DNA from: a bacterium
GTDB taxonomy: Bacteria > Omnitrophota > Gorgyraeia > Gygaellales > Profunditerraquicolaceae
NCBI GenBank assembly: GCA_004298075.1
Contig: SCRK01000054.1
Span: forward strand, 1 to 50,942
Direction: 5' to 3'
Length of the DNA stretch: 50,942 nt
Part shown: positions 1 to 48,000 of the stretch, in pieces
Layout of the letters: each line of letters begins with the position of its first letter
Position numbering within the stretch: the first letter of the stretch is position 1
Made by a program: the position numbers and the translations under genes
Notes under the pieces: generated by a model
Told to the model about the DNA's origin: nothing
Database searches by the model: none
The model's input: only the letters and a program-made list of their open reading frames with translations

Positions 1-2
1 AC

Positions 3-24000: not shown

Positions 24001-27000
24001 AGGGGAAGCCTCTTTATAAGGTGGTGCGTTTTAGAAAGAAGCTTGCTTTGCCGTCTTTGTTTGTGTTTGAGACGGCTTACCAGGTATTAACGGCCATGGC
24101 GTTTCTTTACGCTAACGGTCTTCTCCATGCGGATATTAAATTAGAGAACATATTAATTACCGAACATCGAAAGGTGAAGTTAATAGATCCCTGGTTTAAT
24201 ACGGGAGAAGCTGATTTAGAGGTCCTGAAATCAAAGTGGGAAGAGAGGGCATGTTTTGAGAATCTTGTGTGGTGGCTTTTGTATGAATTCAGGCTAAGGG
24301 AATTCCTGGGGTCGTTTGAGCCGGTTATTTCCGCGCTTATGGAAGTGGGGCCTCATAATCGGCATGAGATAGGCAAGCTGGAATCGGAGGTTTTAAGGCA
24401 TATAAATCTTTTGAAAAACCACGGCATTAAGATTAATAATTTTGACCCCAATTCTTTAATTAACCCCATATATTCATGTTGTGCCTCTCCGCTTAGCGCA
24501 GAAAATCTTATATTATCTAGAGAAGCAAGGGATATTTTGGGCGCGTATCTCGATGAATGCATAGATACCTGTCGTAAATGTGTGCCGGGGAATTCCCGTA
24601 AAGTTATCATAAAGGAGAATAAAATACTTAAAATGGTGATGAGAAGGTCGATGGATAGATCCGTATGTTATTTCGCAGGCAGATATCCGGACTCTAATTC
24701 ACCAGAAGATTATATTAAAAGATATATAAGGGAGGACATTTACTTTAGCTCCATGATAGTAAATATGCTTGATTTCCTGGAAGAATATATTTCCACAACC
24801 TGGTTGTTCCGCTCCGCGGAAGGGTGGATGGATGAATTAAAGGAATATTTTGATGGGTTAATTGTGAAGAGAGAAAACGCGAATGATTTCCGTATCGATG
24901 TGTATTCGTTGGGAGGTTCTTATGGGGACGAGGCCTATAGCATTGCTCTCGTTTTATATGAGTGCCTCGACAGGTATGCGAAAACGCGGCAAAGAGAGGA
25001 TTCGTGGATCAAGAAATGGCAGGTGGGGATAGAAGTGCTTGACCCTAATCTGTTTGCGCTCCACCGCTTCATGGAGCGAAAAAATATTTTACTCGCGAAA
25101 AGCAGCAAATTAGGCATGTTGGGAGATTATCTTGGATATGCGAAAGCAAGAGAGGTCTTTAGCCGGATTAAGAGCTGGATGCAAGCCAGCGCTGTCTATT
25201 TTTCTCCCGGGCTATTTTCTTCGGGAGATGAGGTGAAAAAACTTCTTACCGTATCCAATACGCGCGTAGATGTTATCTTTTCTCTCAACGTTTTGCCTTA
25301 TATCGGCTATCCGGCGATGCAGGATTTATCGCATAGCGTGAAAGAGGGCATAATACTTAGCTTAAAAGGTAACCCAGATTCGGCGCGCTGGGTAACTAAT
25401 TATCAGCTTGACGGACCGGCGCAAATATTCAGGGTCGCGCAGGAAGAAGTGACGCGTCTGCCTAATAAAGCAGGACAGCTAAGACTAAGTGCCTCACCGC
25501 TAAGGTCCGGCATATTTTCTTCTTTCTCAATGGATATCCTTCAGCCGGTATGGCGTCTGACTAATCTCGTGATTGTTTCTTCTCTGTTATTTCTTAATCC
25601 CTCCTACGCTTCTATTCTTCAGAGGCATCCCGTTAATTTAGATGGGGAAAGGACCATCAAGATGGCCATAGGGGTAAGCGAAGGAGTTTGTTTAGAACCG
25701 TTATTAAGAAAAATAAATGTTCCTGCGGATATTGCCAGGGCGATCAGCCGGCTGCCGGCAATAACTCCGGCTAAGGCCATGATCATGTGGAATGTCATTC
25801 TTTTGAAGCCCCAGAGGGTTATTAGCGGCAGCTTGCCGTTTGAGCCGGGAGGCTCCTCTAGCCCGATTTACGCAGGCAAGGATATCTTTGATATTTATTC
25901 TCTGATGCTTATCAAGAGCGATCCCTTCGCTGTCTACCCGGCGATACAAGACCCCGGTCTCTATTTTCATATAGGGCCTATTCTCGCATATCCGAAAGAG
26001 GACAAAAAAGAAGCGGCTCAATTGAAACCTGCTTACAATCCCCCGAGGAAAAGAGTCCCCTGGACGGCTAAATATAGAGAATGGGGGATAATTAAGGAGA
26101 TTATCCCCGACCTGGTCAAGCGCGACGGGTTTATTAGGGAGAAAAGATTTTTAGATGATTATGAAAATCTTATGTTATTCAGAGAAACGCAAAAAGGCAA
26201 CGCGGCTGCCAGAGAAACCTTGATTATGGCATATCTTCCTCTGGTCTACGGGAGGGTAAAAAGGTTCATCGGACTTCATCCTTACTTAATTAATGACCGG
26301 GACGATCTGGTGCAGGTCGGCATTTACGGGAACCATATGATCACGGGAGGGTTTGCCAGGGCAGTGGAGCTTTTTGAGGCAAGAATAGGCTGGATGGGCT
26401 TCTCACACTATGCCACGCGATGGATTGACGCAGCCATGTTGGCGGAGAAAAAGAAGAAAGATAGAATACTCAGCAGGGAATCCCATTTTGATCTTGATCC
26501 GGAGGAGCCTAATAGAAGGGAACCGCTTGAGTTAATACCTGACGAGAATGATTTATTCGAGAAGATAGAAGAGGCAGATGCCTGGTCCGTATTTTTTGAG
26601 GCACTTGAGTATCTCAAGTCAATGATCTCGGAGAGGGACGGCGATATGCTGGTAAGCAGGCTTGCCGAAGAAAGCCTGGTAAGCGTCGGGAAACGTTACG
26701 GAGTATCGCATACTCGTGTTAAGCAAATTGTGGACCAATTAAAAGTGAGGTTAGGTGAAATAATTTATTCAGGCGAGTTCCGCAATGGCCCGGATGCCCT
26801 TCTTAGAGTTTCCAGTAACCTGACTGCCGCTTCTCCCCTTGGAGGTCCAATAGAATGGTACATTCTCCGCAATGAAATACTTTCGGAACCGGTCATATTC
26901 GGCAATAAATTTATACGCAACCATGTCAACCCCTTATCAAGAGAACTGACCGTTGCCGCGGGCTGGGCAGGCACGGATATCGCGAATCTCTGGCTGGCAA

Positions 27001-30000
27001 CCCATTTCTCCACAGCCATTATGATTAACGATTTCAAGATAAGATCCAACAGGCTGGGATTCCATCTTAATAAATGGGAAGAGTTTGACGGCCAATCGGA
27101 TTATTTTGTCCATAAATACGAGCTCGGATATAACTATACGGAGGATTTCTATCCAGACCGCCGCAGGAATATGGAGCCGGAATTCTTTATTTTACAGGAG
27201 CTCCGGGGGATGGGCATCGGCAAGGACCAGATAAGGATTTATACGGATAGCCGGAAAAGGACCGTATTATCTTTCAAGCCGCTTGGTATACAGGAGGAGA
27301 GCAAAATCGTATTTGTTAAAGATAATATTCTTTCTCCGGGAGATAAGCTGAATAATGAATTGTCCGGCAAGCTGAATGTCTACTACCAAAAAGCCTGCGA
27401 AGATTTCGGTTCATGCTATGAGGAATATCTCCCTTCTATCCTAAAATGGATTAAGCCGGGGGGGTTTCTTATTTTCAATCCCTACACCCAGTCAGGCAGC
27501 TATACCATCATCTATGATTTATTAACGGGTTTTAATCGGAGAGGCAATACGAAGCTAGCCCTCTCTTCATCGCAAGATCCCGGCATAGTAGAACAGGCTG
27601 GATACCTGGAGATGAAAACCACCGGCCACGGTTGGGCTATGGAGATCTGGCAGAAATCTTTCTCTGCTTCGCCCCTGCAATCGCAGATGCGGCAGATAAT
27701 CGGTTATAATAAAAAGGGTTGTAGAACGGAAACTTTCTCTTATCAGCCGGGAGGCTCTTTGGGGCGCAACGACAGGTTGCAGGTGAGAGGGGAAACCGCG
27801 CAGTGGTTGGGAGCCAGGGCGCATAATACGGTATTTCAGCATCCCGGGGAACCCTGGGCTATCCGTCTTGGGAGAAGTATTTGCTCCAGAGCGCAAGATG
27901 CTTTATTGTTAGCCGGCCGGGCGTATTATGGTTTTGCCGACCTCTTTAATCGGGGGGTATCCGTACCCAGGCCTGTAGGCATAGCGGTTGCGCAGTGCGA
28001 TATCGGTTACTATCCCTGTTGTTTTGTGTTGAGAGTAGAAGGCAGGAATTTATCGGAGATCATGGAGAAACGTCCTCTCAAAGAGAAGGAGAGGGTGGAG
28101 ATGCTCAATTTAACCTGCCAGCTTATACAGAGCGGGCGGTTTATTCCGGACTTAGACGCGACGCAAGTTATGTCCGGGAAGACCTCTCTGGATGATAGGG
28201 GTGAAAGGATATTCCTGACAGATCCTGACGAGGCAAAGCCATACGACCTGGATATAGCGTTTGTCCTTGAGCATTATAGCCGTAAGCTTACGGGTTTATT
28301 TAATATCCCTGTCTCCCCCCATGGGATTTATAAATTTTATGCCAAAAGATACCTTTTCCCGCTGGCCGTCGCTAAAGGGGTATCCTTTGGACGGGGGGTT
28401 TCTTCTCCGCTAAGCGACCGGGGGTCGATCACGATTAGTAACGATACCTTAGTGAAGAAAATAGGGGCGCGTTATAATTTACCCTGTTGCGCGACAAAAG
28501 ATGCCCAGTTAGAAGATATTAAAAACCACTCTTTTGGTTACAATTTGAATATTCTGCTGGATGTTCTTTATATGATTATTCGCAGAAATTCTTCATCCCC
28601 GATATATTCATACAAAAGCGGTCAGCCTGCGTCGTCCAACATAGAAAGTAAATATATCCTGTCCGCCCGGGCCTGGCTTTTGCTAAAAACAAAGAAGGAG
28701 CTTAAGTGCAGCGTACCGCAGCTTTTTATTTATTCGGAATTAGTCTTTGACGAAATTATTTTAACCAACCCCTATAACCTTCCCGGGCATTTGTTAAACT
28801 ACATAGATACCGTAAGAGAGATGTTCATGCTTCTATACAAGCGCGTGAACGGGGTGCTTGATAGCGATATTGACTCATCCGCAAGCCTGGAGCGGGCAAA
28901 GGGCATCATCCTTATGCTGGAAGACATGCTGACATCCTTGAAATCATTATTGGGTAAATGCCTGAAATGCCGGGAAATTAACAGTTCCGAGCTTAAACGG
29001 AAAATAGAAAGTATCGCCAGCACGGTCAACGATATCGGATGTGTATTTAAGCCATTTTTTGAAAAAAAGACATACATCCAGGTAGATGCCAATATTATTA
29101 TCCAGGAGGTGCTGGATTTGCTGGATTATTACGGTCAAAGATGCTTCGTAAAGACTGAATTTGACCCCGACCTTCCGCTTATTACAGTTATTCCCGCTGA
29201 TTTATATCTGATCTTCTCTGCCATTATCATCAATGCCATGGAGGCATCCGCAATAAAGGGAGATCCGGAAATAACGGTAGAGACGCGTTTTATCGCTCCT
29301 GCCGGTTGCATACAGGTACTTATCAAAGATAACGGCAGCGGCATAGATACGAAATATTTTTCCAAGATATTTGAGCCGCTTTTTACTACCAAGCCGGGCA
29401 GCCTTGGCGTGGGGCTCTCTATAGCTAAAGAAATAGCGCGCAGCTACGGAGGAATGTTAGCGATTTATACAAAAGCGAATAGCGGCACTACTGTGATTGT
29501 TACTTTGCCCGTTGAATTCTCCGCCTCGCCGCTAGAGGCAGAAAAGATCGTTTGCCTGCTCAGGGGAGGTCTTCATCAGGTAAAAGACCCCAGGAATTAT
29601 AAGGAATGGCAAAGGGCCGGATATGGACCGTTAGTCCGCAGGTCTTCAGAAATTCTTGGCGGATGGCATAATGTGGTAAATAAGCTGGGCTTTAAGCCTT
29701 TGACGAGGGAGGAAATCGCGCAGAATAGAATAATATGGACAAAGGAAGAAATAATCCATAGATTATTAAACCCTCCCGTTGAAGTAAGGAATACCTGGAA
29801 TTACAGGCAATGGGAAAAATCCGGTTATTCGCGAATGGTCAGAAGGGCTTCAGAGATATTCGGGGGATGGGAAAATGTATTGAAAGAAATAATGATCCTT
29901 CGTCTCTTTCATTCTCATCGAAAGATAAGGAATCCAATGGACCGCCGGACATGGATAAGAATAGGCCATTTCGAGATGGCCAAACTGGCATTATCCCTGT

Positions 30001-33000
30001 TCGGGTGCTGGGATAATCTACTTAAAGAAGTAATTATCCGCCATCTTAAGAATCCCCCTTCAGAAGTTACCGACCCCAGGAACTCAAAAGAGTGGGAGAG
30101 GGCCGGTTACTGGCAAATGCTGCATTACACAAGGAAGCTTTTAGGAGGTTGGATCAATGCGGTTAAGGCTGCCGGCTATGAGCCTATAGAAAGGAAGGAA
30201 ATAGACAAAAAGAGGACCAAATGGACTCCGGAGGCAATCGATAATCTGCTTTTAAACCCTCCTTTCGATATTGCAGACCCGCGTAATTCACAGGTATGGA
30301 TGGATAAGGGGTATTCGCAACCGGTACACAGGCTCATAGCTACTTATGGCAGTTGGGCCAACGCGCTTAATAAATTCGGCTATATGGCTATTAGGAGACA
30401 ACATTCTCCCTGGCAGGCAAGATATTCGGACTGGAAAAAGGTGGCAGCAATAATACCGGGAGTAGTTTCTGAAAGCGGAATTTTAAGCACGAATGGGTAC
30501 CGAAAATTGAACGATAATGAAATAGCGCGTTTGATACAGGAAGTACGGGATGGCAATGAAGCCGCGAGAGAAGCTTTGATAGTGATAGTAGGGCTTCGTA
30601 TCGTTAAAAGCGTTGCCTGGAGTTTCCGCCGCAGCCCGTTTTTAGGGGTAGATGACCTGGTTCAGGCGGGTATTTATGGAAGCGGCAGAGGGGTGGGAGG
30701 ATTTGCCCGCGCGGCGGAAATCTTTGACCCAAACAGAGAGGGAGGATGTAAATTTACCAGCTTTGCGAGAATTTGGGCTAAGTGGGCCATCATAGGCGAA
30801 TTAAAAAAGGACAGAAGGCCGCAAACTTTTTATCTGGATGACCCTATTAGAGGCACGCTTACCTTTTTCGATATATTACCGGCAGAGCAGGACTTATTTG
30901 CCGATGCAACAGGAATTCTTGAGTTGACCGAATCAATGGAGTCTTTGTCTTTGCTGTCTTCTGCGCCTTCCGTAATCAGTTCTTCCCCGCTGGGTTTGCC
31001 CGCCGAAGGTAACCCATCCCCATGCACTCTGTCTATTAAAGAAACAAAAATATGGCTTGATCAACAATTTAATAGAAGCCCGTCTTTCAACGCAGCAATA
31101 TCTTCCAGCAGCCTTCTGCGCGCTCCTCCACCGGCACTTGCCTTAGTATTTATGCTGTTTTCTAACCTTCCCGCTTTGGCTAGCCTGCCGGCCTCAGCTT
31201 ATTCATATCAATCCATCCTAAAAGAAATAAACGCGACCCTCGAAAATCAGTATCTTAAAGACAAGGTCGCTTTGTTATTGACCGGGATTTTTGGGGTTCC
31301 AGAGGATATCGCCAGGTCAATAGCCTCTTTGGATGGCATGAATACCGCAAGAGCAGCCGGTATTTGGCAGAAAATAAGAGAGGATTATTTGGCGGCGGAG
31401 GACTTCTTTAAAAAAGGCGATTTTGACGAAGCCGTAGATTCCTACTTATCTGTATTGATGAAAGAACCGGATCTCCCCTATATATCTTTTCGCATAGCGC
31501 AGGCATTTTCCGCCGGTGTTGAAGCGGGATGGGGCCAGGAGAAGGGCGGAAAGATTCGCCTTTACTATAATAGCCTTATTTACGCGGATATGGCGGTTAG
31601 CAGGGGTTATCAGGAGTTTGACGTTTATTTGCTGAGGGCGGACATCTTGCTCCGTTTAAGCAGGTTAGAAAAAGACAAATCACAGTTGCTGGAAGCGAAA
31701 GATAACCTTGAGAAAGCGCTCCAGCTAAATCCCGCGTTAAGGCCTCAGGTTGAAAAAAGCCTTGAGTATATTAACCACAAACAACGGGAAATAAGCGCTT
31801 CTTTGCCCGGTAGCTCGCCGCTCAAGAATGAAATGAGGTGGAGTAGCGTAAAAAGCCTGTATTTACCGGCTGACTGGCAGGTGCATACAAACAGGATCGT
31901 TCTGCAGTCCCGGGGTTCAGAGGCGCAGATTACAGAGTTGATTTCAAATATTCCGCCCGACATTCAAGTTGCCGTGGTTGTCAGTCGGCAGTTCCTTGAA
32001 CATCATTCTTCCGCGTCATTCCAAGCCTTGCTCCGGGATGATCCTCGTTCCGAGATCATCGCGGTAAACGGGAATATAGGTATATTCGCGCGGGACAACT
32101 ATCTTTTTACCCTTTCCGAAGAGGGGCCTGTTCTGCTTACTCCCTGCTACGACCTTGAAAGGAATATCCCGGACCAGGATGGCGAACAATGGGTTGCCGG
32201 TTCTTTGGGCATAGAGGTCAAGAAAGCTGATTTTTATTTTGAGGGAGGGGATGTTCTTCCTGCCGGAGAGAATATCTTCGTGGGGGAGAAGGTGATCGCG
32301 CGCAATCGGGAGTATTTTGCTTTGACTGAAAAGCAAGCCCTGGAGAGGATAGCGAAATGGTTCCCTTATCAGGAGGTCGTGCTCTTCCCGTCAATGAGAA
32401 AGATAAGGGGATATTTCCATTTGAATACTTCGGTGACCTTCCTTCCCCGTAAACGGGCGGTCTTAGGTGATGTTAAGCTGGGCTTACGCCAGATAGCCGC
32501 GTTGAGCAGGCGCCAGATTATGCGCCTGGATCCTCTATTTGAGAGCCTATGGACAAAAAGGTGCTGGCTGGCGGGAGGAATAGCCAATTCCGTAAGAAAC
32601 CGTAAAATATACGCGCAAAGGGAAGAGAAATTAACCTCGTTGGGCTACTCCGTTATTCCCGTCCCATGGTATCCTCCACATGAATTTATCCACACAGTCC
32701 CTAATTACAATAATATAGTCTTCCTTGGGGAGGATCTGGCCCTGCTGCCGGTATTCGGGGTTCCCGCCGACGCGCAGGCGACGAGGGCCTATAGAGATAA
32801 TGATATTGATACTATAGCGTTAAACTGGTCGGCTTCGGATTATCAGGGCAGAAACGGTTATTGGCGCTGCTCCATGAATATTGGCGGTATTAATGAGCCG
32901 GCGGTATTATCTTTGCTACCAGGCATGGCCTTTATGCCGGAAGTTATCATCGGCAGGATAAAGGAAAGCGGGCCAGCTTCGCGCAAACCCGTCACATGCG

Positions 33001-36000
33001 GTAAACAACACAGCGCCTCGCCGCTGGCTTCAAGTTTCAATCCTCTGATGGTAAAGACGATGGAATTATTGCTTGATTCTCGCCCCGAGCTCAAGGATTT
33101 GGTCCAAGGCATTAACTCTAGGATAGATGGGCTCGATATAAATAAGGCGCTTAAGGATACAGAACTGCCGGATGAATTCATCGCTCATCTCAAGACGCAT
33201 TGCCCGGAGAAAATACTGGGAGTAAAAGACATGCTAAGGGAAATGGGCACTCTAAAAGATGGTTATTTCCTGGGGGTAAGGGATAAAAAGAGCATATTCA
33301 TCGGATTAATAGAAGCATTTAATCTACAAAATTATGAGGATGCATATGATCAGTTGGGTATCTCTCCTTTTTGCCATAACCACACCGGGAACCTGATGGG
33401 TGCTTTATCTGCAGGTGCTTTTGGTAAGCCCGTGGTATTTTGTTTACCTTCTGGGATTTTTAGCTATGAGGGCGCTTATTATACGCCAAAAGAAGTCAGA
33501 TGGCTGCTAAGCAGATATCAGGCATATCCTGAAATATTAGACAATTTTTATTTTGTCCTGGGTTTGTTTGAGCTTGTGTCAAATACGGAATATATCCCGT
33601 ACCAAGGACTTGAAAATGGATGGAAAGTGGCAGGGGCGATAGCATATGCCTTTAACAAATATTATGACAGGCAAAGCGCCTCGCCGCTGGGGAGCTATCC
33701 GGTAGAATTTATATACTTTTGTAACCCGGGATTTATCCTTGGACTTACTAAGGATATTGAGGTACTGTTGAGCGCGAAAAAATATTCCTTCCCCGCATCT
33801 ATTACCGATAGCCACGAGGGCATACTCCCTTGGCTTAAAAAATATGAACGCATTCTACCTTGCAGCGGAATTCTTGTTTTTGATGACCACGATGACCCAC
33901 TAAGGGATAAGGAAGGCGGATGGATCAGAAAGGCCTTTGAGGATAATTTAATCAGCGGTTATGAAATATTCCAGCCTGGGTCATTAGACGGAAAGTTAAA
34001 ATTAGCCCCTGAAACCCAGGTTCATCGCTATTGGATCAGCATTGAACTGGATTATTTATTTTCAAGGCCAGGTCTGGCAAATTATCAGAAAGATCTGATA
34101 GAAAGAAAATTGCAACAGATAATCGATTACCTCGTATACAATAAAATTGTATGTTGCGGGTTGAATGTGGCCACCGCGATACACGCTTATTATTCATATC
34201 TTCCTGCCGATCTGCCGCAAAAGATTATTTCGCGTACGATTTTGCGCACCTTTGAATTATTCCACAGGTTTGATGTGGAAACAATGTTTCATGTTAACAG
34301 TATACCATCTTCGGGGCAGGAAGTTTTGCCTGAGTTAGGCCCGGAGCCGGCTAATTTTAGTCATTCCACGGCAGAAGAAGGAAATACTTGTTCTTCTGCC
34401 TTGGAGTTAAAAATGGCTGAAAGAGAGGTCCGGTTAAAACTTAAGATTGCCGATAAATTAAGGCGGGAGGGTGCGGTGGATTTACGCCAATTCAGCCAGG
34501 AATTAGGATTAAGCAGGGATGCTCTCGCAAGGTTAATCAAAATTTTAAGGCCGATATTGGGAGAGGTCTGCGATGTAATCGAAAAAGCCAATCTCTTCCC
34601 TACCGGCATCGCAAAGACAAGGATGGCGATTCATCAGGAAGGAGATTGGCATAGAACTGATCATATTATAGGCGTATCTGAGGATGGTTTAAGAGTAGCC
34701 ATACAAACGCGCCGCGACAAGAAAGATAGAGGGGGATTGTTTGTGACCGGTCATCTTGCCGTAGGGGAAAACGCTCAAGAGTCATTAGCCAGGGAGATGG
34801 AGGAGGAAATAGGGGTAATCAACCTCGATATTTCCAGGCTCTACAGGGTGTTCAGATATTTCTATAAAATTGGGAGTAGTGAATATAAGGGTAAACCCGG
34901 ATACGACAAAGACATATTTTTATATAGTACTTCCGATATTGCAAATAGGGAAGTTTCTTATCTGTATCTTTACGTAATCCAAGAACAGGAAGAGCAGCTT
35001 CTTAATCTGGGTATCTCTACCGAAGAAGTAAAGGGGATAAGATTTATCCCATGGGCTGATTTAATAATAGATATATTTGAGTGTCCGGAAGCGTATCATT
35101 CGGCCGTCACGCAGTACTTCATAAGGCCGGACTTTTTCGATATTTTAGCGCAAATTAATTTTAAGGAAGATCATAAGCACCTGCAGGATATTTTTGAGCA
35201 ACTCAACCCGGAATTCCTCAGGATCAGGAGACGGTATATCGCGGGCTCGCCGCTGCGGCAAGAAATCTGCCTTGTTCCGCAGTTATTTAACCGTTCCAGG
35301 CAAAAAAAACTGTTAAACCGGACTATAGAGTTATTGGAAGAAGTTTGTTATTTGGGTAGGGATGCCGAAGGCAATAAAATTGAATACAGATTTACTGTCT
35401 CCCAGGGAAGCCCGGAATACTACCTGCCTGCTAATCCTTCCTGTAGGTTCTGCGGACCGGAAATACAGCGCTTATTCCCGGATACGGCTAATTTTAGTCA
35501 TGCAGCAGTGGTGGTTGACCGGATCACCTTCAAGTCTCTTAGGCCGTATCATCATGAGATAAGATATTCCGTGCAGATATCGCAATACTGTGACTCGGAG
35601 AAAACCTTGTTGGATACTCTCCTGGGAGTAAGCGCCATATGGGAAGATAGCCGGGTAAAACAACTAACAGGAATTAAGGCCAAGACGGCTTCATTAAGGA
35701 TGGCCCTGAAAGCAAGGCTGAGGGACTTGAATAAAGATTTTACCAGATTTTATCCGGATAACGGGGATGAAGAGGGAGCTTCCTCTCCGCTGGCACAGTC
35801 TATCATTAATCCTAAAGATATATCAAGCGGCCAAAAACTTGCCGATATTATTCAGAAGATTATTTTAACTCCCTATCCGTCCTCCAGGCATTATCCGGAA
35901 TACCCGAGGGATCATGGCTGCCATTTCCGCTTTTTTCCCACAGGGACTAAGGCATTCTTCGCTGGCGGCACTGCCTCTTCGCCGTTGGCACGCAGAGAAC

Positions 36001-39000
36001 AACCGCTTGCCGTTTGTCCGTTGGCCACGGGGAGAGAAGGCGAGTATATTTTTGCTTACAGGAAATTAATAGAGGAGGGGCTGGTTTTTTATAAAACTGC
36101 CCTGGCCAGCTTATTTTTTGTTTTTCGCAGGATCGCCCGCCAATATTTGATAGATGTGTTCGATCTGGAAAGGATGCAACAGGCGGCATACCTTGACTTC
36201 AGAGTGGCATCAAATGACACCAAGTTTGTTGAGCTAAATGAAGAATCAGCATGGTATCAGCTATTGTCATTCAGCTCTCGCGTGGAGGAGGCTTTGCAGG
36301 AGTACGGTTCCACTATAAAGATTCTTCCTGGTTGCGCAAGAGAAGCGGCTCTTGGTATTTATGTGCATCCACGATATCGGAATTTGAGGAACGGGAAATT
36401 ACTCATCTATAACCTTGATGAAATCTTGATGGCTGTTTTTCTGGAGTTTGGGTTTGAGCAGAGGGCGCGGGAAGCGCATATCTGGCCCAGAGATCATCAG
36501 AGCTACAGTTATTTTAAAGAAAAATACGGAGCTAAAGATATACCGGGTAACGGCGAATGGCTTCTTATAGGGCTGGATCAAAAAAAGAGGAATTATCCCG
36601 ATATTGGCATTATAGATGATAGCAACGGAATGGCAGAATATTTTTTAGTAAAAGGAAAAAGAGAGGGAGCAGCAGGCAGGGAATATTCTTCTTCGCCCCT
36701 CACTCCTCAAGAGCGGGCGAAATTATTATTTGAAAGCGCGGGGGTTAAAGATTTATTTGCGCGCCTTGTGCGATATAGGGTAATCCATGAGAAGTACATT
36801 TCTGATATCAGAGAAAATCTTTTTAATCTGGTGAACATGCCATTTGCTCCGAAAGATAAATTATTTGACAGCATAGATCTCTTATCCGAAGATACGCTTA
36901 TTAGCTCCATCTTGGCATTGATAAAGAACAAAAAATTGTTCAGGGGCACGGGAATGGAAGAGGCGTATTCTCTTGATGAGTTTTTGCTTAAAAGCGGCGG
37001 CAACAGGGATGATGTTAAAGGTACGTTGTCACATATTTTATTTTATTTTGTTTCAAATTTTCGTAATGAATCAGTATTTTCTGAGAGTAAGCCCGAACTT
37101 GAAAACGACCCAAAATACCTTAAAACTTCTCTTTTGGAATGGCAGTTTATTTATTCTCTTTTGAGGTTGGAGTATGTTTCAACCCATGGTTTCACTGAAT
37201 CCGGGGCTTCGCCGCTGGAAGATGCAATAGTATTTACGCCGGAGAAATTTTATATTAGTTTACAGGAGAAGGATTACCCTTTTATCCTAACTTTACCCGT
37301 TAGAAATTGCGGCGGGGTGAATCTGCCTTTCTATTTTTTAAGGGATTTGGCGTTTAAGGAACCCGTTTCTCTTAAAAAAGGGGATTTTATTGCCGCCTTC
37401 AGGAACAATGGTTTTATAACCTTGCGGATAAGCAGAGAAATTTTGGCAAAATTAAACTCTCGTTTAGAGGGCCGAGAGTATTTAAAAAATCTCGCATTTG
37501 AATGCTATTCCTTTCTTGCGCAATACGCAGGAAATAATATATCCCTTAACCCTTGGCAACAATTATTATCTTTGGACACAGAGCGCGATTGTATAAGTTA
37601 CTATGAGCGCGCAAGGGAGCCTTCCTTGGAGCAGGTTTTTGTGCGTATTAACCATAAACTAAAAGATTGTTATGCTCCGGATAAGTTTATGGCAGAAGCA
37701 AAGGATATATTCCGCCATATCTTTACCGGTGACTCCGGCATTAAGGGCCCCCTCTTCAGGGTAATTTCAGAAAAGGGATTAATGGAGATGGGGCAATTAG
37801 GCTATTATTTTGCCGCCGAAGGAGAAGTTTTTGAAAGCAAGAGAGCAGTCCTAAAGAATGAAGGGTCCCTGATTAATAGCAGAATTTTTGGGACAGCTAT
37901 TTTGGGGATTCCTGATACAAATACAGGAGTATACTTCGTAGCTGGAGCAAAGCAGGGTCTTGTTAAGGTATACGCTAGCCATTGCGTATCAGAAGGGCGC
38001 GTTAAAATAAATAAAAAATGGGTGGATTTAAAGCAATATCTGGAGAATGCGGATAATTATCAATTGCCTGATTCCGGTTCCTCACCGCTGACATTAAATG
38101 AATATGATTTGCTTTTTACCGCTATAGCTGAAATAGAGAGCGCTATCCCCGGATCTTACCCGGTATCGCAGCTACGATGGCATCAGTTCAGGTCGTTCAT
38201 GCATCAGATGCGCGATAAGCATGCCGTGAACGTTGAGATATTCTCGCTTTCGCAGGAATTGGCGGAGGGAGGGAGAGGGTTTTTACCGGTCAATTATCTG
38301 CACATAAATGATACCATTGAAAGCATTCGGGATGCTCATGTCCAGAGTTTATATCCCCGGATGAAAAGGCGCGAGAAGTCATTCTTATCGCGTGGATTAA
38401 GAAATGTTGTGCAGCACTGCCGGAATGGGATCGCTGTTGTGTTAGCCATGCCCGCGCAAGAGCATATAGCGGCCGCCATCATTGACAATGGCAGCGGTTT
38501 CCAAAATGAGCGGGGGGAAAGAATATCTATACAATCCGCAGTAACATTCGGCAGTTCATACGGATCAACAAAATCAATGGGTATGGATTTATCTTTGATG
38601 GTCGGTTCTGCCGATATTTCAATAATTATGCAGCCATCCGAGACAGGGATCTTATATCCGGCCTGGTGGGGATTTGGTAATCACTCAAACTGTTTAGTCA
38701 GCTTTAAGAACGCCAAGAAATACGGCCTGACGGTTATGGGCTTATTTTATAAGGGTAAGTTTAGAGATTTTTGGCCATGGAGGCGTCAGCTGTTCCAGAT
38801 TATTCCGGTGGCCTTAAGCATGGCGGACGAAAACATCTTTGGTGTTTCTTCCCCCCTTTCCTTCAAAGCGGCCGCGCCATTAGCAAGCCGGAATGTTTTT
38901 GGTAATTCTAAATGCGCTAGCGCTTTGAAAGTGAGAGGTCTCAATGCTATCGGTCTTAAAGATGCCCTGGGGTTATCATTAGGTTTTCTTTTTCCTGCGC

Positions 39001-42000
39001 TGGCCCAGGCTTTTTTCCCGGGCCATACCGCGCCCATGCTTGTGGTTACTATTATTGAAGCTTTGTTGTGCCGGCAGTTATTCGGCTGGAACAGTTTTCT
39101 TGGCTTTGGAATAGGCGTATTTCTTGCCGGTATGTATACAGGGTTTCCCATTACTTTATCGCTGTTATCGTTTTTAATAAGCCTCTATTATATGTTTAAT
39201 AAATGCGAAAAGATCCGTTCGCCGCTAATTCGTGCCGGGATGAATTTTCGCGATTGGGCAGTTTTAATGAAAGTACGCCTGGGCATTAAGCGGTTGATAA
39301 ATAAGGCCCGTTCTAAAGGAATGGGCGGTTTTACCGCTGAGGATCTGGTTGTGCTTTTGTATTGCCACTACTCTTATGATGCCTGGCTAAGAGACGCAAT
39401 GCTTGAAGGAAGGGTCAACTTGGTTAACGATGGTTATGTGACTTTGCGCAAGATGGCATCCAAGCAGCTGCGCGAGCTTTCGTTAAACAGGGAATTTTTG
39501 ATTAGCTTGGCCAATTTTACGGAAAAATTGTATTTTCTTTTAAGCGGGACAGCGATTATCAATAAGAAATCACGGGCTATCATCAGGAAAATAGTGGCAA
39601 AGATTGAGTCTGACCCGGCATTATTTTACGCCCGGAAACTTCCCGTATCCGGGTTGGTATCTGCCGATATTGAAGCCGCAAATTACGATTATCCTTCGAA
39701 AGATTCGTTCATTTACGAAAGAAGTGTAGTTATCTTGACGGAAGACATACAGGACGTCGCGCTTTATATCCAGAGGTTCATTGATTCCAAAGCAGACAGT
39801 TTTCCCGATGGGAAATTACCGTGGTTTGTGCATCCAGAATGCCGGATAAGGTTGAGCGTCATAAAGTTGTTTTCCGGAGGTCAACCTTGCATGAGGAAGG
39901 ATATCGTGCAAAACGTAGATTCTTTGGCTGAAACTATTTGGGATGGTTTGCAGCAGAAATACGGAATTGTACTAAAGAGCATAGAATCAGCTCATCCAGC
40001 CGCCTCTCCCCTGGCGCACAGGCAGATATTCACTAATCACATTATTTATCCGTATCTGTTACTCAGTGAAATAGGGCTGAGCGATCTAGAAGATACGAAT
40101 GCTATCGCGTACTATTATTTAAATAGGTCGAGAGCATCTGAAATAGAAGATGATTTTGAGTTTGTTATAGAGGTCTACCCTGGTTCAGAAGAAAAATTCA
40201 ATATTATATTGGAAAGAGTGAGAAAGGCAAAGAAATTATTGAAATTTTTAAGTTTACGCAGGCAGGTAGAAGTAATTTATGGAATTATGAAAAAAGAAAT
40301 TCCTAGGTTAGCTGACCCGGATGGGTATTGCGATTTTACGTCCGCGTTTCTTGCAAAATTGTTGGTTGAATTAGGGCATAACAGAATTGAGACGTGTAAA
40401 GTTAGAATATTGTGCAGAGATGGGCATTATGAGGACCATATGTTCATCCGCAAGCGGATGTTTGATAATTGTGATAATCTATATATAGACCTAAGGTTAG
40501 AACAGTTTGGGGACATCATTGACAGGTTGGATGAACTGTTCCGTTTATCCTCTATTCAGCAGCCTAATCTGAAATCTAACGTTAATATATTAAGCCAAGC
40601 CCGGACATTTTTAAGGCATTTAACATTTAGCCACAAGAATGAATACGGGTATACCTTTAAGTATCAATTTGAAACTATAGGTAAAGAAAGGGAATCAACA
40701 TTTGGGCATTATCTTCCCGCGCGTGCCGGGGGGCTTTTTTACTCCGCGGAGAAACTCATTATTGCAATTGAAACAATTCCAGGAGGGAATGAGATAGCTG
40801 TATTTTGCAGTGTCAGGATGATGCAGGAAGGAATAAATGGCATTGAACTGTTAGAGAATATTTTAGGTCTGGATAAATTTTGGGAAGATTGCCGAAGTTC
40901 ACAAGATGATAGCGGAGTGGATAACGCAAGGAATAAAATTGCTTCAAAATTGGAGAGCTTAAAAATAGATGCCGCTTTTTCCGTGGTGGCTAACGGGGAT
41001 ACCCTTCCGGTTGGCTCCAAAGACGCCTCCCGATTGGTTTCAGAAACGTCCCTACTGGCTCGCAACTCCTCGCCGCTGGTAAATATAGATTCCGAGGAAG
41101 TAGAATACCTTTCTGTAGAAGACAAGATATTTAACGAGCGGCCAGATATAATACGTGCCGTAATCAAAGAAGAACAACCTCCTCTATTTGAGGTCCAGAT
41201 CCATCCAACCAGTATCTGCAATAATAGATGTATAGGGTGCATCGGAGTAGCCATTGATAAAACCCTTAAGAATAATGTTTGTTCTCGCGCATACGTATCA
41301 CTTTCCCGTAGGCAATTTTCGAAAATCATCCAAGATATAGTAGAATATAATTCCCTCGTAACAGAAATTCCAGGGCAGCATCCTGTCAAGCGCATAATAT
41401 TTTCCGGGCTTACTGGGGAGCCACTTTGCAACAGACACAGTATTTATGCGATAAAAGAACTCGCTGAAATAGGATCCAGCATTACGCTTTTAACAAATGG
41501 AAGACTTCTTAATAATGAAGAAAAGAGGGAAACGGTAATTTCTTCTATCACCGATATTATTATCAGTTTGTACGGGGCTTCGCCGGAGACCTATGAGCTT
41601 GTTACGCGGGTAAACAGAAAAGCCTTTAGGCCTCTCATGGAGGATATAAGTAGATTGGTTCAAATTAGGAATGATAAAGGGCTGGGAAGCAAGATAGGAA
41701 TTGCGTTTTTAGTTGAGCGCGAAAACTATAAAGAAATTATTTCCGTAACAAGGGTGGCCCGCGAATTGGGAGTTGATTTTATAAGATTCAGGGCCATTAT
41801 GCAGGCTACCGAAAGTATGTTAACCTCCAGCCAGTGGGAAGAATGCGAGAAATCTATGTCTTTAGCCAAGCGCACATTTGAAAGCAATAGTTTTCAGGTT
41901 ATGATCACTTCTGATGATAAGAAAACATCGTGTAATTTACCGAAAAGTTGTTTAAACTGCGTCGCCTGCCAGATCATGCCGGTAATAGGTCCGGATTTTA

Positions 42001-45000
42001 AGGTTTACCCCTGCTCCCATCTTAGTTATATTGGCGCGGAAAGCTTCGGGCCTTTTGAGGATGATTCTTTGTTCAATTTAATGTCCGGTGCACGTAAGCA
42101 GCAGCTGATTGCCAGGATTACTTCTCAACCTACTGAAATTGTCTGTTCTCCAAGAAGAAGCAGGATAAATTCTTTTTTTGATAGGATAAAGAGTGGTAAC
42201 ATCGCCGCCTCGCCGCTGGCGCAAGGGCGGGGACAGTTCTATCGCAACTTATTGTCAAGCAACGCATTAGGCAGAAACGGTCTTGCGGGCATTTCGCATG
42301 TCCGGAAGGAATTTTTGCCTGACTTGGGTATAAGCGCCTCGCCGCTGGCGCAAGAGTCGACTTTAACGGCATCTCCATCATCAATAACAATTACTGGACA
42401 TACTGGTGATATTGGAGCCACACTATTACGATTTGCCCTAAATAGAAATTTAGCAATACATGTGCTTGCTAGAGAAGAATCCTACCATAAGTCTCTCTCG
42501 CTATTCCGTGTAAATGGAGAATCTATAAAGTATCATAGGGGAGGTTTATTATCTATATCGGCAATAAGAGAAATAGTCTATTCTACCGATGAATTATTTT
42601 ATCATCTCGCCGCAATGGTCAGCCGGGAATTTAGTCCTGAACAAAAAGCCCTGGTGTTAGCAATAAATGGTTTCGGAACAGGGCTGATTGTAAAAGAAAT
42701 AAAAGACTATAATAGAAATATTAGGTTCATTTACGCGTCCAGTCAGAGAGCCTATCAATTGCTAAATCAAAAAGAGGTGACAAAATTTATCCAAAAAGCC
42801 TATGAGAAATTTAGCAATGAAATAGGACCTTTTTTGAAATCCCCGGATGAAGTAGTCAAAGAAAAGATATTGGCAATAAGCCAATCTTTATTAGATGATC
42901 TTCCTCGGAGTGTAAATATTTACGATATTTCAAAGTTACTTGGCGAGAAGTTTGCCGAAGACCTTCCTAATATTGCGATAGCTCGCATTAGTAATGTGTA
43001 TGGGCCGGGGTTTGCAGGAAATAGATTAGTGCGAAGGCTTATCGAAGGCAGGTTTTCTACCAAAGGTACAAAGGTAGTTAATGAAACAAGAGATTATATT
43101 TATTCACATGATTTAGTTGAAATATTGTTCAAAATTGGCGCTAGCACTAATTTACCGAGAATTATCGATATTGCAACCGGAGTGCAAGTTACCATCAAAC
43201 AATTAATTAATATTATATATAAGTATACCCAAGATTGCCTGGGAGTATTAACTCCCGCTGGTACACAAAAGTCTACTTTCAAGCAGAGCGGTGATATTGC
43301 CAGGGAAATATTAGGCAGGGACTTTGAGGACTTGGAAAACGGACTGGGAAATACTATAGATGACTATAGATTAAGAGATACATTGAGCTGCGTTCATTCA
43401 GATCGCGATATTGCTGTTTTTGATATCGGAGGCGCTTCAGTGCGTACAGAAATAGGCCCTCATAATAGCTTTCTTATTAAAGCGAACGCTTTAGAAACGA
43501 CAAGATTTACGAATTATTTTACTACAGATATATTTAGTGAAACTAATGACATATTGGCTTCCCTGTGTGAAGGCAGAAGGATCTCAGTTTTCGTTGATGC
43601 AGCCATATTTGATTTATATAAAGATGCAATAAGCAGCTATTTAGTAAAACATAATATCGAATTTACTTTGTATTCTTGTGGAGGCGGAGAAAGTAACAAG
43701 AACCTGGAATCGGTTTTTTGGATAATTGATACAGCAATGGAAGATGGAAGGGATCGTAAAGCAATTTTTGTGGTAGTGGGGGGCGGTGCATTAATGGATG
43801 TTGTAGGGTTAGCGGCTCAGCTTTACAGGAGAAAAATAGATTATATTAGGATTCCTACTACTTTGTTAGGGCTTGTTGATGCAGCGGTTGGCATCAAGGT
43901 AGGAGTTAACTATAGGGGGCATAAGAACTTCTTAGGCGGTTTCCATGCTCCTCACGCCGTTATTAGCGATCCATCTTTCCTTAGTACTTTGGACTCAAGA
44001 CAAATGAGAGCCGGGGTAGCAGAAATAATAAAAATAGCGATAGTTTCCGATAGGGGTCTTTTTGAAGAAATTGAACAATGGGGAAAACAGTTAATTAACA
44101 ATGAGCCATTTCCTAGGAAAGATGAAATCATCAGGCGGGCAGCTGTTGAATTAATGAAATATCTTCAGCAAGATTTATATGAAAGAGATCTAAGGAGATA
44201 TCCGGATTTCGGGCATACTTTTGCCCCTCAAATAGAAGATATAAGTAGCTATTCAATATTGCATGGAGAAGCAGTAGGAATAGATATATTACTCTCAAGC
44301 CATATTGCGATGGAAAGAGGCATTTTGCCAACTTTTGTTTTTCATCGGATTGTCAATCTGATTAGAGGCTTGGGGTTACCTTTATTTGATGATTCAATTG
44401 ATTTTGATGGAATATGGAATAGCCTCGAGAGAACTATAGCTCATAAGGGCGGCAGGCTTTTAATGTTAATTCCTAAAGATATCGGCCAAACAATATTTAC
44501 TAATTCTTTATCCCGAGGTGAAGTTGATAGGGCCCTGGCTTATTTCAAGAAATTACATGAAGGGGAAACTGTTTCTAGCGCAATCGGAACAGCGGGCTGG
44601 TTGGTCAGCCGCAGCGCCTCGCCGCTGGCCGAAATTAGAAGTAGAGAATACTGGTTAAATATAGGATTGATAGAATCTATTTTCTATGGGATAGGAGTGA
44701 TAGTGGGCAGTTCGCGGTATTTGTCCACGGGCAGTAGATTTGTGCCTCTGGACTATATTAGCGACGTGGATGTTAACATTATACTAAACGATAAAGATGC
44801 AGATGCAGTATCGATATTTGGTGGTGTTCCGATAAGAATAATATATCCTGCTATTGAAAGAATAAAGAATGATTATGGAGCAGAAATAGAGTGGGAAGAT
44901 CCCTGTAGACTGGAAATTAAAATTCCTAACAAGTATTCATTTTATTTTCATTTTTTAGACGTTTCCTCTGTTGATCACATAATCAAAAATTGCATTTACG

Positions 45001-48000
45001 AACAAAAGTGGAATCTTAGTTATTTATATCAGTGGAAGTATACGAATCTTACAGGATTCAATATTATCGTGAAGTGGCTGAAAAGATATCTTTCGATAGA
45101 ATATTATTTTGGTGATCCGGATAGGTACAGAAATAATCGCGACGCATTCTTAGTTTGCCAAAGCTATGCTGAAATGGATAAGTTGAGAGATAGAATTATC
45201 GCATCTGGAGTTGTGGATTATTTTCTAGACAGGGGAGTGCATTGTAAATACAGGTATGTTTATATATATGAGCGCGTCAAAGAATTGCTTTTTTGTGGCC
45301 TCAGTGATGGAATGCGCAATGGCGACGAACAAGATGCCCCTGAAACGGTGATGGGTTTATCTAATAAACAGGGAATTTCAGCCGCCGCCTCGCCGCTGGT
45401 AGAATATCCATATTTGCGCGACCGTGTGGCAGTTGGAATAAGAAGGATCGCGCATAATGCGATATTTGGGCTAAAACTTGATCCCATTCTTGCATTTTTA
45501 AGCGACAAAAGGGATAAGGAAGATCAAGAACTGGTAAGAAGATTTAAATCTCTAAGAACGGATGTTATTAAAAATAGAAACGGAGAAAGAAAATGGATTG
45601 AGGAATTTGCTTATATTTACCAAGAAAGAATAAAGTTATTAAGTTTAAAGACCTACAAATTGAGGGAATTTGAATTTTCCCCCATTGAATTATTACGTAC
45701 AAGTTATGATTTTATCTGCTGCAATTCCCCAAAAGATATCTTAGATACCTATTATATAAAAGAGGCTTTTCAGGCATATCTCATGTATGTGTATAATGAA
45801 AGATTTGATTGGAAGGGACGTGGACATGTTAATGCGAATGCAATCGATTTAATTTCTATGCTAATAAACATATTTGATAATGCCGTAGAGGTGACCGGAT
45901 GGCGAAAAAGGGAAAGCATGGAAAAACATGTTGCTAAGTTTCTTGTCAGCGCTTACTGCGAAGATGATATGTTTGTTATTGAGATTCAAGATAAAGGAGG
46001 GGGCATACCTGAAATCAGCTTGGAACGTGGCAAATATGAGGATAAAGGCCTTCGTTATTCGAAAATCTTTGATTACGGGTTCTCAAGGGGTAAAAAAGGA
46101 AGCGGCATAGGTTTAGCAGAGGCATTTTTCGTCATCAGTGACCATAAGGGGACAATAGAGATAAAAAATAACCCTGGCGTAGGAGCTGTTTTTGCTATCA
46201 AGTTGCCATTGGTAGGGAGTGATTCACCCGAACGCGCCAGTGGAGCCTCGCCGCTGGAGCAGGATGCTATATCGGCTCTTAAATCAGAATTCCTCAAGGT
46301 ATATAATGTGATCAGCACGCAGGAAATATTGGATTACTTAGAGGAAGATGGTTCTCTTTTTATGCGCTATACAATGGCAGGAGTCTGTGGCAGGGTAGCT
46401 TTTTTCCATGAACGTGCAGAAATATGGTATCTCCATACAGTAATGGGGATCACGGCTCCGTATGTTTCGCAGATAAGTGGCAGAGAGTACCTTTATGCTC
46501 ATGCGTTCGCTATAGACAATGAATTTGACTTAATACAAAAAGAAGCATTTGAACAAGGGTGTCCAATATCCAAAGAGGCATTGGTATTAACCGCGCCTGA
46601 TGCGTTTATATTCCCCAATGATCCAGATGCAGTAGCAATGTTTAATTTGAGAAATTTCCTCATAGGCGCTTGGTGGGGATGCCTAAACAATATTCCTTCC
46701 GACATAGAGGCCGAAGCCGCACTTAATTTTTACCTTGCAGATGAACAAATGTTCACAGTTATAGACGATACGCAATCTGGGTTGCTCAGTAGGGATGAGA
46801 TAAAACAAGCAAGCCAGAAACTGCTGCGTCAAATCCGATTTTATAAAATAGAAATATCCAGGTTAGTTCAATATAGCAAAGAAGTGAAGTTAGGTAGGGT
46901 ATTCAGACTAATATCTCTTGCTATTATGAAAAACAATAAACATGAATTAAGAAAAATTCTACAAAGGCTGTCATTTGGTGGCTCATCTCTGATTGCATCT
47001 AAAGACAAAACTATCTACATGCAAACAGCTGATTGCAGATTATTGGATACCAACAAGGGCGCCTCGCCGCTGGCGCTTGAAAGCGGGGGTTATAAAGCAA
47101 TAAGAATCAATGGCAAGGATTATTATCCATTAATCAGTCCTAAAGGCGACCTTGAATTTAGGTTTGATATTTCGGCCATAATAAGAGAAGAGCTGTCATC
47201 CATTATAGATGATTTGCAGCAAGACATGATTAAGGAGGATACATCTTTAGATATATTTAAAGCTGGATATTGGCAGACGCGCTATCTCGAATTAGAAGAG
47301 CAAGAAATCCAGCTGATAGCCGATAAACTTAGGGAGCTTCTATTATGCGCAAACCGGATTTGCATAGCCGGAATTGAGACCCTTTCATCGTTAGCTAGGC
47401 ATAAATTTATCTTGGGTATGTTTTTGGGTAATCAGCATTGCGCTGAGCATTCGATTAAGCAGGTTAAGGCACGCCAATTATTTGAAATAATGCAGTCCAC
47501 AATGAAAAGGCTGGGTATTTCATATCCGGTATATGTCTTTGGGAGCGCGGCTAAATATGGCTTGAGAGAGGGGCATGATATAGATATCGCAATTCCGGAG
47601 GAGAGATTTTTTAGGGCGCCGACGATTAACAGATTGATTGAGAATTTAAGAATTGAGCTTTCCGGGTCTTCGTATTGGGGCCCAACCATTAAAGACAGGT
47701 TATCTTTAGCGGAGCTGACCGAGAAGAGGCCGGATTTCAATCCATTCCTACACGGTATTATTTATCGAATTTCATCCGATTCTATTACCCCGATACAGGA
47801 TTATAATGAGCTACATGAAACCATAAGAAATGATACGCATGGCGCTTCGCCCCTGGTGCGCCATAGCGTACAGGAAAAAGTTATAGGTCTAAAAGATTGG
47901 CACGGTTTTATTCCCGCATTAAAACAAGAGCTAAATAAACAAGATTACCGTAAGGATTACGTAGTTATTAGGGTTTTTAAGGCAAATAGGATCAAGGTTT

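Follow-up and report, generated by a model that had tools for sequence, protein, structure and literature searches.

The stretch of 50,942 nucleotides (nt) of contig SCRK01000054.1 analysed here, which we call the window, belongs, as judged by homology that also places its host, to an Omnitrophota giant gene of the Archaeovorin type. The radical S-adenosylmethionine (SAM) enzyme, the extended short-chain dehydrogenase/reductase (SDR) and the sugar phosphate cyclase encoded at nt 41079-44627 are modules of one open reading frame (ORF) of at least 16,980 codons and not separate genes. The explanation that we regard as probable brings these parts together: an Archaeovorin-type giant gene would carry here a shuffled radical SAM module, a leader cut off from its enzyme, and an SDR-cyclase supermodule from which a sugar kinase of the ROK family has been deleted. 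What appeared to be a cluster is a string of modules in one ORF, and what appeared to be a decayed junction between modules reads as the scar of a domain deletion. We hold this anatomy with high confidence and the enzyme chemistry with moderate confidence, whereas our confidence is low as to what the four-residue motif, [A/S]-S-P-L, that stands at the module junctions does. The class of giant genes is already known; the regular [A/S]SPL punctuation and the SDR-(ROK)-EEVS supermodule (EEVS, the synthase of 2-epi-5-epi-valiolone) with its kinase-deletion scar appear not to have been described before.

One reading frame and its modules

Among the three forward frames of the window, frame 3 contains no stop at all, while the other two contain 1161 and 1369, and the translation of nt 41079-44627 runs unbroken for 1,183 amino acids (aa). 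The coding signature is even along the whole window, with the G+C content higher at first than at second codon positions (GC1 > GC2) and purines at about 0.6 of first positions. On the minus strand the longest ORF has 276 aa and no Pfam match, and two antisense ORFs, at 40739-41431 and 14144-14974, lie opposite the coding frame without a match to any family. Because frame 3 is free of stops, the coding signature is uniform and the antisense ORFs match no family, the three enzymes are parts of a single very large gene. In an operon or gene cluster each gene has a start and a stop of its own; here stops are absent, and a Shine-Dalgarno (SD) sequence with an ATG is not enriched after the junctions.

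This frame is punctuated by 40 in-frame copies of the motif (Table 1), with 24 occurrences of ASPL where 0.39 would be expected and 16 of SSPL where 0.41 would be, together 40 [AS]SPL against about 0.8, and no other 3- or 4-mer approaches such an enrichment. Of the matches to a degenerate DNA pattern of the motif 38 are in frame, each other frame and the minus strand having a single one, and a repeat finder recovers the motif independently. The median module length between the 40 sites is 330 aa. None of the 40 copies lies within a Pfam match, and often they stand 4-12 aa past the end of a domain, as with the two HATPase_c domains, which reach to aa 9837 and 15403 and have an ASPL at aa 9841 and 15415, respectively; overall, domains of a kind that usually closes a protein are found 4-20 aa ahead of a junction. 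The N-terminal motifs, in turn, come 16 aa (SDR GxxGxxG), 46 aa (radical SAM cluster) and 17 aa (HAD domain) after a junction. Since N-terminal catalytic motifs and domain ends are thus at normal distances from the junctions, the modules resemble complete proteins fused head to tail, and probably many ordinary-looking proteins have been joined in this way in one frame, each module being the equivalent of a complete protein.

The Pfam content of the ORF is correspondingly mixed. It includes HEAT_2, GH77 4-alpha-glucanotransferase, HAD/HAD_2, RelA/SpoT-like, HD, Ser/Thr kinase and CheR domains, then HATPase_c (twice), TPR, NUDIX, Radical SAM, Epimerase with 3-dehydroquinate synthase (DHQS), nucleotidyltransferase and PIG-L, and also three paralogous sigma-70-like units with HTH_8. 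The sigma-70-like units, at window positions 10056-10974, 25818-26778 and 30384-30942, are 35-40% identical to one another, and one is followed by Fis-type HTH_8 repeats; such transcription-factor-like modules are an odd content for a supposed surface or predation protein.

The SDR-cyclase block and its neighbours

An earlier sequence-only reading of this DNA had recognised an extended SDR, with GxxGxxG and YxxxK, and a DHQS-like cyclase in one block of 756 aa, and this is borne out by Pfam (67, 114 and 87 bits), the E-values of the domains leaving no room for chance and the next ASPL being at nt 44616. The TGxxGxxG motif (ITGHTGDIG) is at nt 42396 and YxxxK (YDISK) at nt 42921-42935, and in NCBIfam and the Protein Data Bank (PDB) the SDR has weak matches to nucleoside-diphosphate-sugar dehydratases and epimerases. 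A HMMER scan over 1.84 billion protein representatives returned relatives of 1.4-5.6 thousand aa, and every relative that carries a name, whether of the SDR, the cyclase or the radical SAM part, is a protein of a metagenome-assembled genome (MAG) of Candidatus Omnitrophota/Omnitrophica. In P0003-P0007, P0010 and P0013 the SDR is followed by about 340 aa and then by the cyclase. At least seven long relatives have the order SDR-ROK-cyclase, which Pfam shows for P0003-P0006, and alignment together with a ROK-type lead motif for P0007, P0010 and P0013; the Pfam ROK model (PF00480) matches between the SDR and the cyclase, or after the SDR, in P0003, P0004, P0005, P0006 and P0021 with 55-88 bits over a domain of about 330 aa.

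At the border between SDR and ROK six relatives read (V/I)VFDIGGTS(I/M)R(A/T/V)G(I/V/L)F, and three more have a variant form; the DIGGTS stretch is the phosphate-1 loop of the ROK kinase fold. The window has VFDIGGASVRTEI at this place, followed by 9 aa (TEIGPHNSF) and by the cyclase lead LIKANALETTRFTNYF, which aligns with LIKSKVSLNREMDNYF of P0006. Pfam finds no ROK domain in the window, and the Thr of the loop is replaced by Ala. On this alignment about 330 aa (some 1 kb) of ROK kinase is read as lost in frame, FDIGGASVR being the leftover of the FDIGGTSIR loop. The codons ggc gct tca gtg of GGASV do stand at nt 43431-43442, as had been reported, with the suggestion that they look like a GASPL which has lost its Pro codon. 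Six orthologues, however, have at this spot the DIGGTS(I/M)R with which the Pfam ROK domain starts, and [AS]SP[L/V] is found there in none of the relatives; with GGASV a remnant of the ROK loop, the idea of a decayed ASPL is refuted, and this by the very condition that had been set for it, that no orthologue should have a motif at this place. Since a junction motif is missing between SDR, ROK and cyclase in every relative, we consider these to have formed an old multi-domain unit and not two modules; by the recurrence of their order in at least seven relatives, the SDR and the cyclase are evolutionarily linked. The unit as a whole would be a supermodule, in relatives SDR, ROK sugar kinase and EEVS-type cyclase, from which here the kinase has been removed in frame.

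Upstream of the block, the ASPL copies at nt 42207 and 42336 do enclose the micro-module of 39 aa that had been noted earlier. No Pfam family matches it, its GC content at third codon positions (GC3) is 0.60, and it aligns weakly with a leader, free of the motif, that P0006 and P0007 have before the SDR. It is probably, on this likeness, the N-terminal leader of the SDR module, which an additional junction would have split off as a unit of its own.

The radical SAM module was also correctly identified from its C-x3-C-x2-C motif and its extra Cys cluster. The former is CNNRCIGC (CxxxCxxC) at nt 41217-41240; the latter is a C-terminal group at module positions 285, 291, 294, 297, 312 and 356 (about nt 41931-42146), of which C291, C294, C312 and C356 are invariant across three homologues, and the Pfam SPASM model gives no match. 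With 29.3 bits the module is marginally below the Pfam Radical_SAM cut-off of 29.5; generic radical SAM/SPASM models of NCBIfam reach E = 6e-22, all of them far under their equivalog cut-offs, and the only PDB match is a weak one, to the sugar-modifying DesII (E = 3e-5). An orthologue that is 59-63% identical lies in P0156, a protein of 7,224 aa encoded on contig JAHKAP010000035.1 (locus L001, a Ca. Omnitrophota MAG), which was retrieved with the radical SAM alignment; it is bounded by the motif on both sides and its neighbouring modules are different. By this homology the radical SAM module is an independently shuffled unit, and in the proposed anatomy it would be the first of three, before the leader and the supermodule. 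We considered a conserved pairing of it with SDR-ROK-cyclase and rejected it, since P0004 and P0005 have upstream radical SAM domains that are non-orthologous to it, and in most SDR-ROK-cyclase relatives no radical SAM domain lies upstream. P0004 and P0005 (4.3 thousand aa) have the order radical SAM (twice), SDR, ROK, cyclase and AAA_28, a P-loop domain, which may be a larger conserved pathway block than that in the window.

Peptide patterns taken from the SDR-cyclase block matched neither the window itself nor any relative when genome, viral and metagenome collections were scanned; a word-index protein search gave only two distant AroK/AroB fusions for this block and nothing for the radical SAM module; and a metagenome scan with the radical SAM alignment returned only matches of 21% identity.

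The sequence-only reading had taken the region for a natural-product cluster of three enzymes parted by ASPL, with an ASPL deprived of its Pro codon at the SDR-cyclase junction, and this we now consider highly improbable. The enzymes are of the kinds met in sugar and cyclitol pathways, and in P0004 and P0005, too, radical SAM domains closely precede SDR-ROK-cyclase, but the alignment of GGASV with the start of ROK in six relatives, and the absence of a junction motif there from every relative, speak against the supposed junction. As to the partnership, our radical SAM module is no orthologue of the domains in P0004 and P0005, its true orthologue stands in another context, and Radical_SAM is among the commonest Archaeovorin domains, so that a chance adjacency is likely; a functional trio is therefore unsupported. 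The identities of the enzymes and the link of SDR to cyclase survive from that proposal, while the separate genes, for want of any stop, and the radical SAM enzyme as a conserved partner do not.

The identity of the cyclase can be approached from several sides. In PDB sequence searches the EEVS ValA (4P53) scores 251 bits and desmethyl-4-deoxygadusol synthase (DDGS, 5TPR) 216, against at most 157 for true DHQS and 97 for 2-deoxy-scyllo-inosose synthase (DOIS). The aroB equivalogs of NCBIfam are not reached (TIGR01357, 229.8 bits against 305; NF004852, 242.6 against 333). The NAD and metal sites are present (GGGALMD, IPTT, K14632 and N14642; metal ligands E14674, H14738 and H14754), and the cyclase reads GHTFAP, with Pro where GHTxGHA has its catalytic His. 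At the equivalents of D281, P288 and H360 of ValA we take DHQS to have Asn, His and Lys, the Asn preceding the first metal His, the His being the catalytic one of GHTxGHA and the Lys lying towards the C-terminus. At L267, D281, P288 and H360 of ValA, which are four of 14 fingerprint sites and which we presume to be discriminating, the window has L, D, P and H as ValA does, while DDGS has E, A, P and T. Two fingerprint sites separate EEVS from DDGS (PMC4426668), and 14 separate EEVS from DDGS and DHQS according to Kean et al. (2014) as cited there. We assign the cyclase with moderate confidence, by similarity and by these four of 14 sites, to the EEVS-type sedoheptulose-7-phosphate cyclases. 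From such an enzyme one would expect a C7 cyclitol of the 2-epi-5-epi-valiolone type; this compound or a sugar precursor might be modified by the SDR. Now that the kinase has been lost, what is made, if anything, is probably a C7 cyclitol without phosphate or its derivative. It is hardly credible that we have here an ordinary shikimate-pathway AroB (3-dehydroquinate synthase), fused by happenstance, for although the best family matches of the cyclase by name are the Pfam and NCBIfam DHQS models, it falls under both aroB equivalog cut-offs, prefers ValA by about 95 bits to any true DHQS, presumably replaces the defining Asn, His and Lys of DHQS by Asp, Pro and His, and has no other shikimate enzyme, by Pfam, in the window.

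Eight other long relatives of this protein set (P0012, P0015, P0016, P0018, P0025, P0027, P0028 and P0031) contain two tandem copies of a DHQS-like cyclase, in some cases followed by the SDR, which suggests that sugar phosphate cyclase modules have become an expanded family here.

The junction motif and its possible roles

The copies of the motif vary only at synonymous positions, both Leu codon families being used. In the P0156 protein SSP[A/V/I/L/T] occurs 20-26 times against about one expected, its Ser codons switching between AGY and TCN, and the six ordinary genes that adjoin this giant gene have the motif 0 times in 2,063 aa. P0156 (L001 positions 1-13825) uses the junction form SSSP[V/I/A], has ordinary genes directly downstream, and contains also a Glu/Leu/Phe/Val dehydrogenase module and a HAD module. 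SSPL of P0006 and of P0021 aligns with the ASPL of the window at nt 44616 and 42336, respectively; the P0008 cluster, whose members share about 99.5% identity, is uninformative on conservation of the motif. No extended conservation was found in the flanks beyond a small residue at position -1, and the residue after the Leu is mostly Ala, Val, Glu, Ser or Gly. On these comparisons the motif is constrained at the level of amino acids, and it is most likely read at the protein or translation level.

Proteolytic processing would be the likeliest use of such a mark, although we hold even this only tentatively; at the least the motif would be a definite linker from one module to the next. It is conceivable that the [A/S]-S-P-(L/V/I/A) junctions are processing points of giant genes, and that we deal, at least in this lineage, with a bacterial polyprotein, in which about 40 or more unrelated proteins of cytosolic type, an operon-sized set for the window by itself, would be translated as a single chain. 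The chain would then be cut at the four-residue mark by a dedicated protease, or be parted by a ribosome-level event at the Ser-Pro bond, and new modules might be gained through recombination at the DNA of the motif (GCCTCGCCGCTG). The motif, a small residue followed by [A/S]-S-P-L, would stand where an operon has stop, spacer and start.

Other mechanisms at the junctions were examined and set aside. Internal translation starts are rejected, as an in-frame SD with ATG follows one of the 40 junctions against 1.2 at random positions; the sole case, at window positions 9942-9965, is the junction ASPL-EGGM followed by GGAGGGAGGGATG, a strong SD-like sequence with an in-frame ATG, and is at chance level. 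For a catalytic or structured RNA at the junctions there is no Rfam match, the whole window giving nothing at gathering thresholds, and a hairpin GCGCC...GGCGC occurs in a few motif copies only and is not conserved. As for a frameshift to a stop, no slippery heptamer was found at the motif, and out-of-frame stops are too common to discriminate.

Several observations weigh against the picture as we draw it. The closest relative of the SDR, P0021 (50% identical), is an SDR-ROK protein without the cyclase, and the closest relatives of the cyclase, P0009, P0011 and P0014 (55-57% identical), lack SDR and ROK and have a glycosyltransferase upstream; therefore the fusion could stem from recombination and not from a simple deletion. 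The window is a fragment with both gene ends outside it, so that the total length and any SecA-like or peptidase domains are beyond its view. The more distant SDR-ROK-cyclase relatives P0003-P0005 and P0007 have no junction motif, which makes it lineage-restricted. No peptidase domain was detected by Pfam in the whole window or in P0156, nor by PDB sequence search in the first 10,000 aa. Within the motif TCG stands in 23 of 40 copies, where the background is 10% (p = 2e-13), CCG in 31 of 40, CTG in 21 of 40, and GCY for Ala in all 24, and nine of the final 12 copies are the same 12-mer GCCTCGCCGCTG; with such bias and such identity a process at the DNA or RNA level is active as well, and the motif is perhaps not purely a protein signal.

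A possible alternative to cutting, which we rate as doubtful in its own right, is that the motif is a structural linker or a translation-pausing site and that the product stays whole, as a membrane-anchored multi-enzyme coat. Archaeovorins have been published as membrane-associated giant proteins, and hydrophobic segments are present in the window: Kyte-Doolittle hydropathy, the only transmembrane measure used, has 18 peaks of at least 1.6 with a strong group at aa 7327-7850. The failure to detect a peptidase, the over-use in the motif of TCG and CTG, which are uncommon ORF-wide, and a slight excess of disorder-promoting residues in the flanks point in the same direction. Linkers, however, are normally variable in length and composition, and an exact four-residue motif repeated 40 times would be unusual for a passive one; moreover, many of the modules are of cytosolic type (sigma factors, histidine kinase ATPase domains, CheR, NUDIX) and are normally free proteins. 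The cluster of hydrophobic, transmembrane-like segments at window positions 21981-23550, with hydropathy up to 2.9, lies between the HD and the Ser/Thr protein kinase domains.

It is unlikely that the motif acts mainly at the DNA level, as a footprint or target of module-shuffling recombination with no role in the protein. The codon bias and the nine identical copies described above speak for it, and such copies bound modules of distinct composition: from the SDR-cyclase block on, GC3 is 0.31-0.38 in the modules at 42348-47072 and 47856-48356, bounded by GCCTCGCCGCTG copies, against 0.40-0.56 upstream. The radical SAM module, too, is found in different contexts in two lineages and is motif-bounded in both. 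But the older copies differ only synonymously (Leu as TTA, TTG or CTN; all four third-position codons for Ser and Pro), in P0156 Ser-Ser-Pro is kept while the Ser codons change between AGY and TCN, the motif holds strictly to the reading frame and to one strand, and it has neither extended flanking conservation nor a conserved hairpin. The identical copies fit a recent addition or conversion with later synonymous drift, the alternative being selection for particular codons, and the composition of the two GC3-distinct stretches suggests a younger or foreign block. A reading of the motif at the protein or translation level remains the one that we prefer.

As to the remainder of the window, the modules that flank the three enzymes (nt 37218-41078, 44628-45398, 46257-47072 and 47856-48356) have no convincing match in Pfam or NCBIfam, one motif-bounded module among the neighbours having only a sub-threshold EF-hand match. 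For nt 40014-41078 and 44628-45398 the single-sequence models of AlphaFold2 had a mean pLDDT (predicted local distance difference test) of 37.8 and 36.0 and were of no use. The GC skew is positive in all 2-kb bins of window positions 1-50942 (0.07-0.24), with G exceeding C on the coding strand.

Table 1. Features of the window discussed in the text (positions in nt of the window)
Feature	Position	Strand	Basis or remark
Stop-free reading frame, 16,980 codons	3..50942	+	runs off both window ends; part of a giant gene
40 in-frame junctions [A/S]-S-P-L	4152..50942	+	consensus [GT]C[CT] TC[GT] CCG CTG
First bases of junctions 1-20	4152, 9357, 9942, 10203, 12660, 13764, 15480, 17136, 18111, 21660, 21879, 23109, 24483, 25491, 26829, 27666, 28401, 29523, 30981, 31812		
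First bases of junctions 21-40	33015, 33678, 35781, 35976, 36690, 37206, 38079, 38847, 40002, 41067, 42207, 42336, 44616, 45387, 46245, 47061, 47844, 48345, 50490, 50931		
SSPL junction	41067..41078	+	directly upstream of the radical SAM module; aligns with SSPAASPV of the Omnitrophota orthologue
Radical SAM module, 380 aa	41079..42218	+	starts at the first codon after SSPL; closing ASPL at nt 42207-42218
Spacer of 39 aa with ASPL	42219..42347	+	ASPL at nt 42207-42218 and 42336-42347 enclose 39 aa
Extended-SDR domain (NAD-dependent epimerase/dehydratase-like)	42348..43415	+	Pfam Epimerase PF01370, 67.2 bits against a cut-off of 20.9
Putative ROK remnant VFDIGGASVRTEI	43416..43454	+	about 13 residues; includes GGASV at nt 43431-43442; alignment with relatives
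Sugar phosphate cyclase, DHQS fold, EEVS type by similarity	43473..44561	+	Pfam DHQ_synthase PF01761, 114 bits; DHQS_C PF24621, 87 bits
ASPL junction	44616..44627	+	closes the SDR-cyclase module; block of 756 aa; aligns with SSPL in P0006

Comparison with known systems

Among the Omnitrophota giant ORFs are widespread (Seymour et al. 2023, PMC10066038); giant genes of up to 147,155 codons are known there, and a further paper on giant proteins of this phylum is that of Nielsen and Lui (2026, bioRxiv 10.64898/2026.06.07.730766). The Archaeovorins of West-Roberts et al. (2023, bioRxiv 10.1101/2023.11.21.568195), a set defined by a single ORF of more than 90 kb or 30,000 aa, have HEAT_2, HATPase_c, Radical_SAM, TPR, NUDIX and HAD_2 among their top domains, and Archaeovorin domains diverge strongly from ordinary homologues. 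The window shares with them the Omnitrophota origin, an ORF of tens of kilobases without a stop, hydrophobic segments, poor conservation between lineages, and a mix of divergent enzyme and signalling domains to which also a glycosyl hydrolase and a methyltransferase belong; this repertoire is matched by its GH77, CheR, Radical_SAM, NUDIX, HEAT_2, TPR, HATPase_c (twice) and HAD_2. In comparison with their size limit the ORF of the window has at least 50,940 nt or 16,980 codons and is open at both ends. Archaeovorins have in addition a SecA_DEAD-like domain and an N-terminal C39 or S8 peptidase, none of which was found in the window by Pfam, or in its first 10,000 aa by PDB sequence search, both ends of the gene lying beyond it. 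A junction motif is not reported in these papers, whereas the window is punctuated by [A/S]SPL every ~330 aa. An EEVS-type cyclase or an SDR-ROK-cyclase is not mentioned for Archaeovorins either, and the word dehydroquinate has 0 occurrences in the text of West-Roberts et al.

The lack of information on cleavage points in the products of Omnitrophota giant genes has been described as blocking their structural analysis (West-Roberts et al. 2023). The junction motif falls exactly between protein-sized modules and is conserved at the amino-acid level in two lineages; it supplies concrete predicted boundaries and a rational way of splitting giant proteins for structure prediction. In the Omnitrophota giant-gene literature that we searched no mention of such a motif was found, nor anything that joins Omnitrophota with the word polyprotein. 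The closest formal parallels are the light-harvesting polyproteins of dinoflagellates, with their C-terminal SPLR cleavage mark (PMC3480386), and viral polyproteins, in which protein-sized units likewise stand head to tail with a short conserved end motif, SPLR sharing even the S-P-L. In dinoflagellates, though, the units repeat one family, in a eukaryote, and are cut after Arg, while those of the window are unrelated bacterial proteins; the likeness is one of analogy only.

Fusion of a DHQS-fold domain in one chain with further enzymes of its own pathway is familiar from the fungal pentafunctional AROM protein (PDB 7U5S, 6HQV). AROM, however, combines a true DHQS with four shikimate enzymes in a fixed order over about 1,600 aa without any junction motif, and the window matches it with 93-125 bits. 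The cyclase is nearer to the EEVS enzymes ValA (4P53) and AcbC, ValA being the best match with a solved structure and the metal ligands and the residues L267, D281, P288 and H360 being kept.

In acarbose biosynthesis the reaction of an EEVS (AcbC) precedes that of AcbM, a glucokinase/ROK-like cyclitol kinase, after which epimerase and reductase steps come. Unlike the C7N-aminocyclitol pathways, the window has no adjacent glycosyl- or aminotransferase, its activities would be domains of one polypeptide, and the kinase has, on our reading, been deleted. In the relatives of the block the cyclase nevertheless goes together with a ROK kinase and an NAD-dependent enzyme, in a manner that we take to resemble AcbC and AcbM at the beginning of such pathways. 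An SDR-ROK-EEVS unit would bring C7-cyclitol chemistry, as in the glycosidase inhibitors validamycin and acarbose, into the candidate repertoire of these ultra-small bacteria, which are predatory or episymbiotic.

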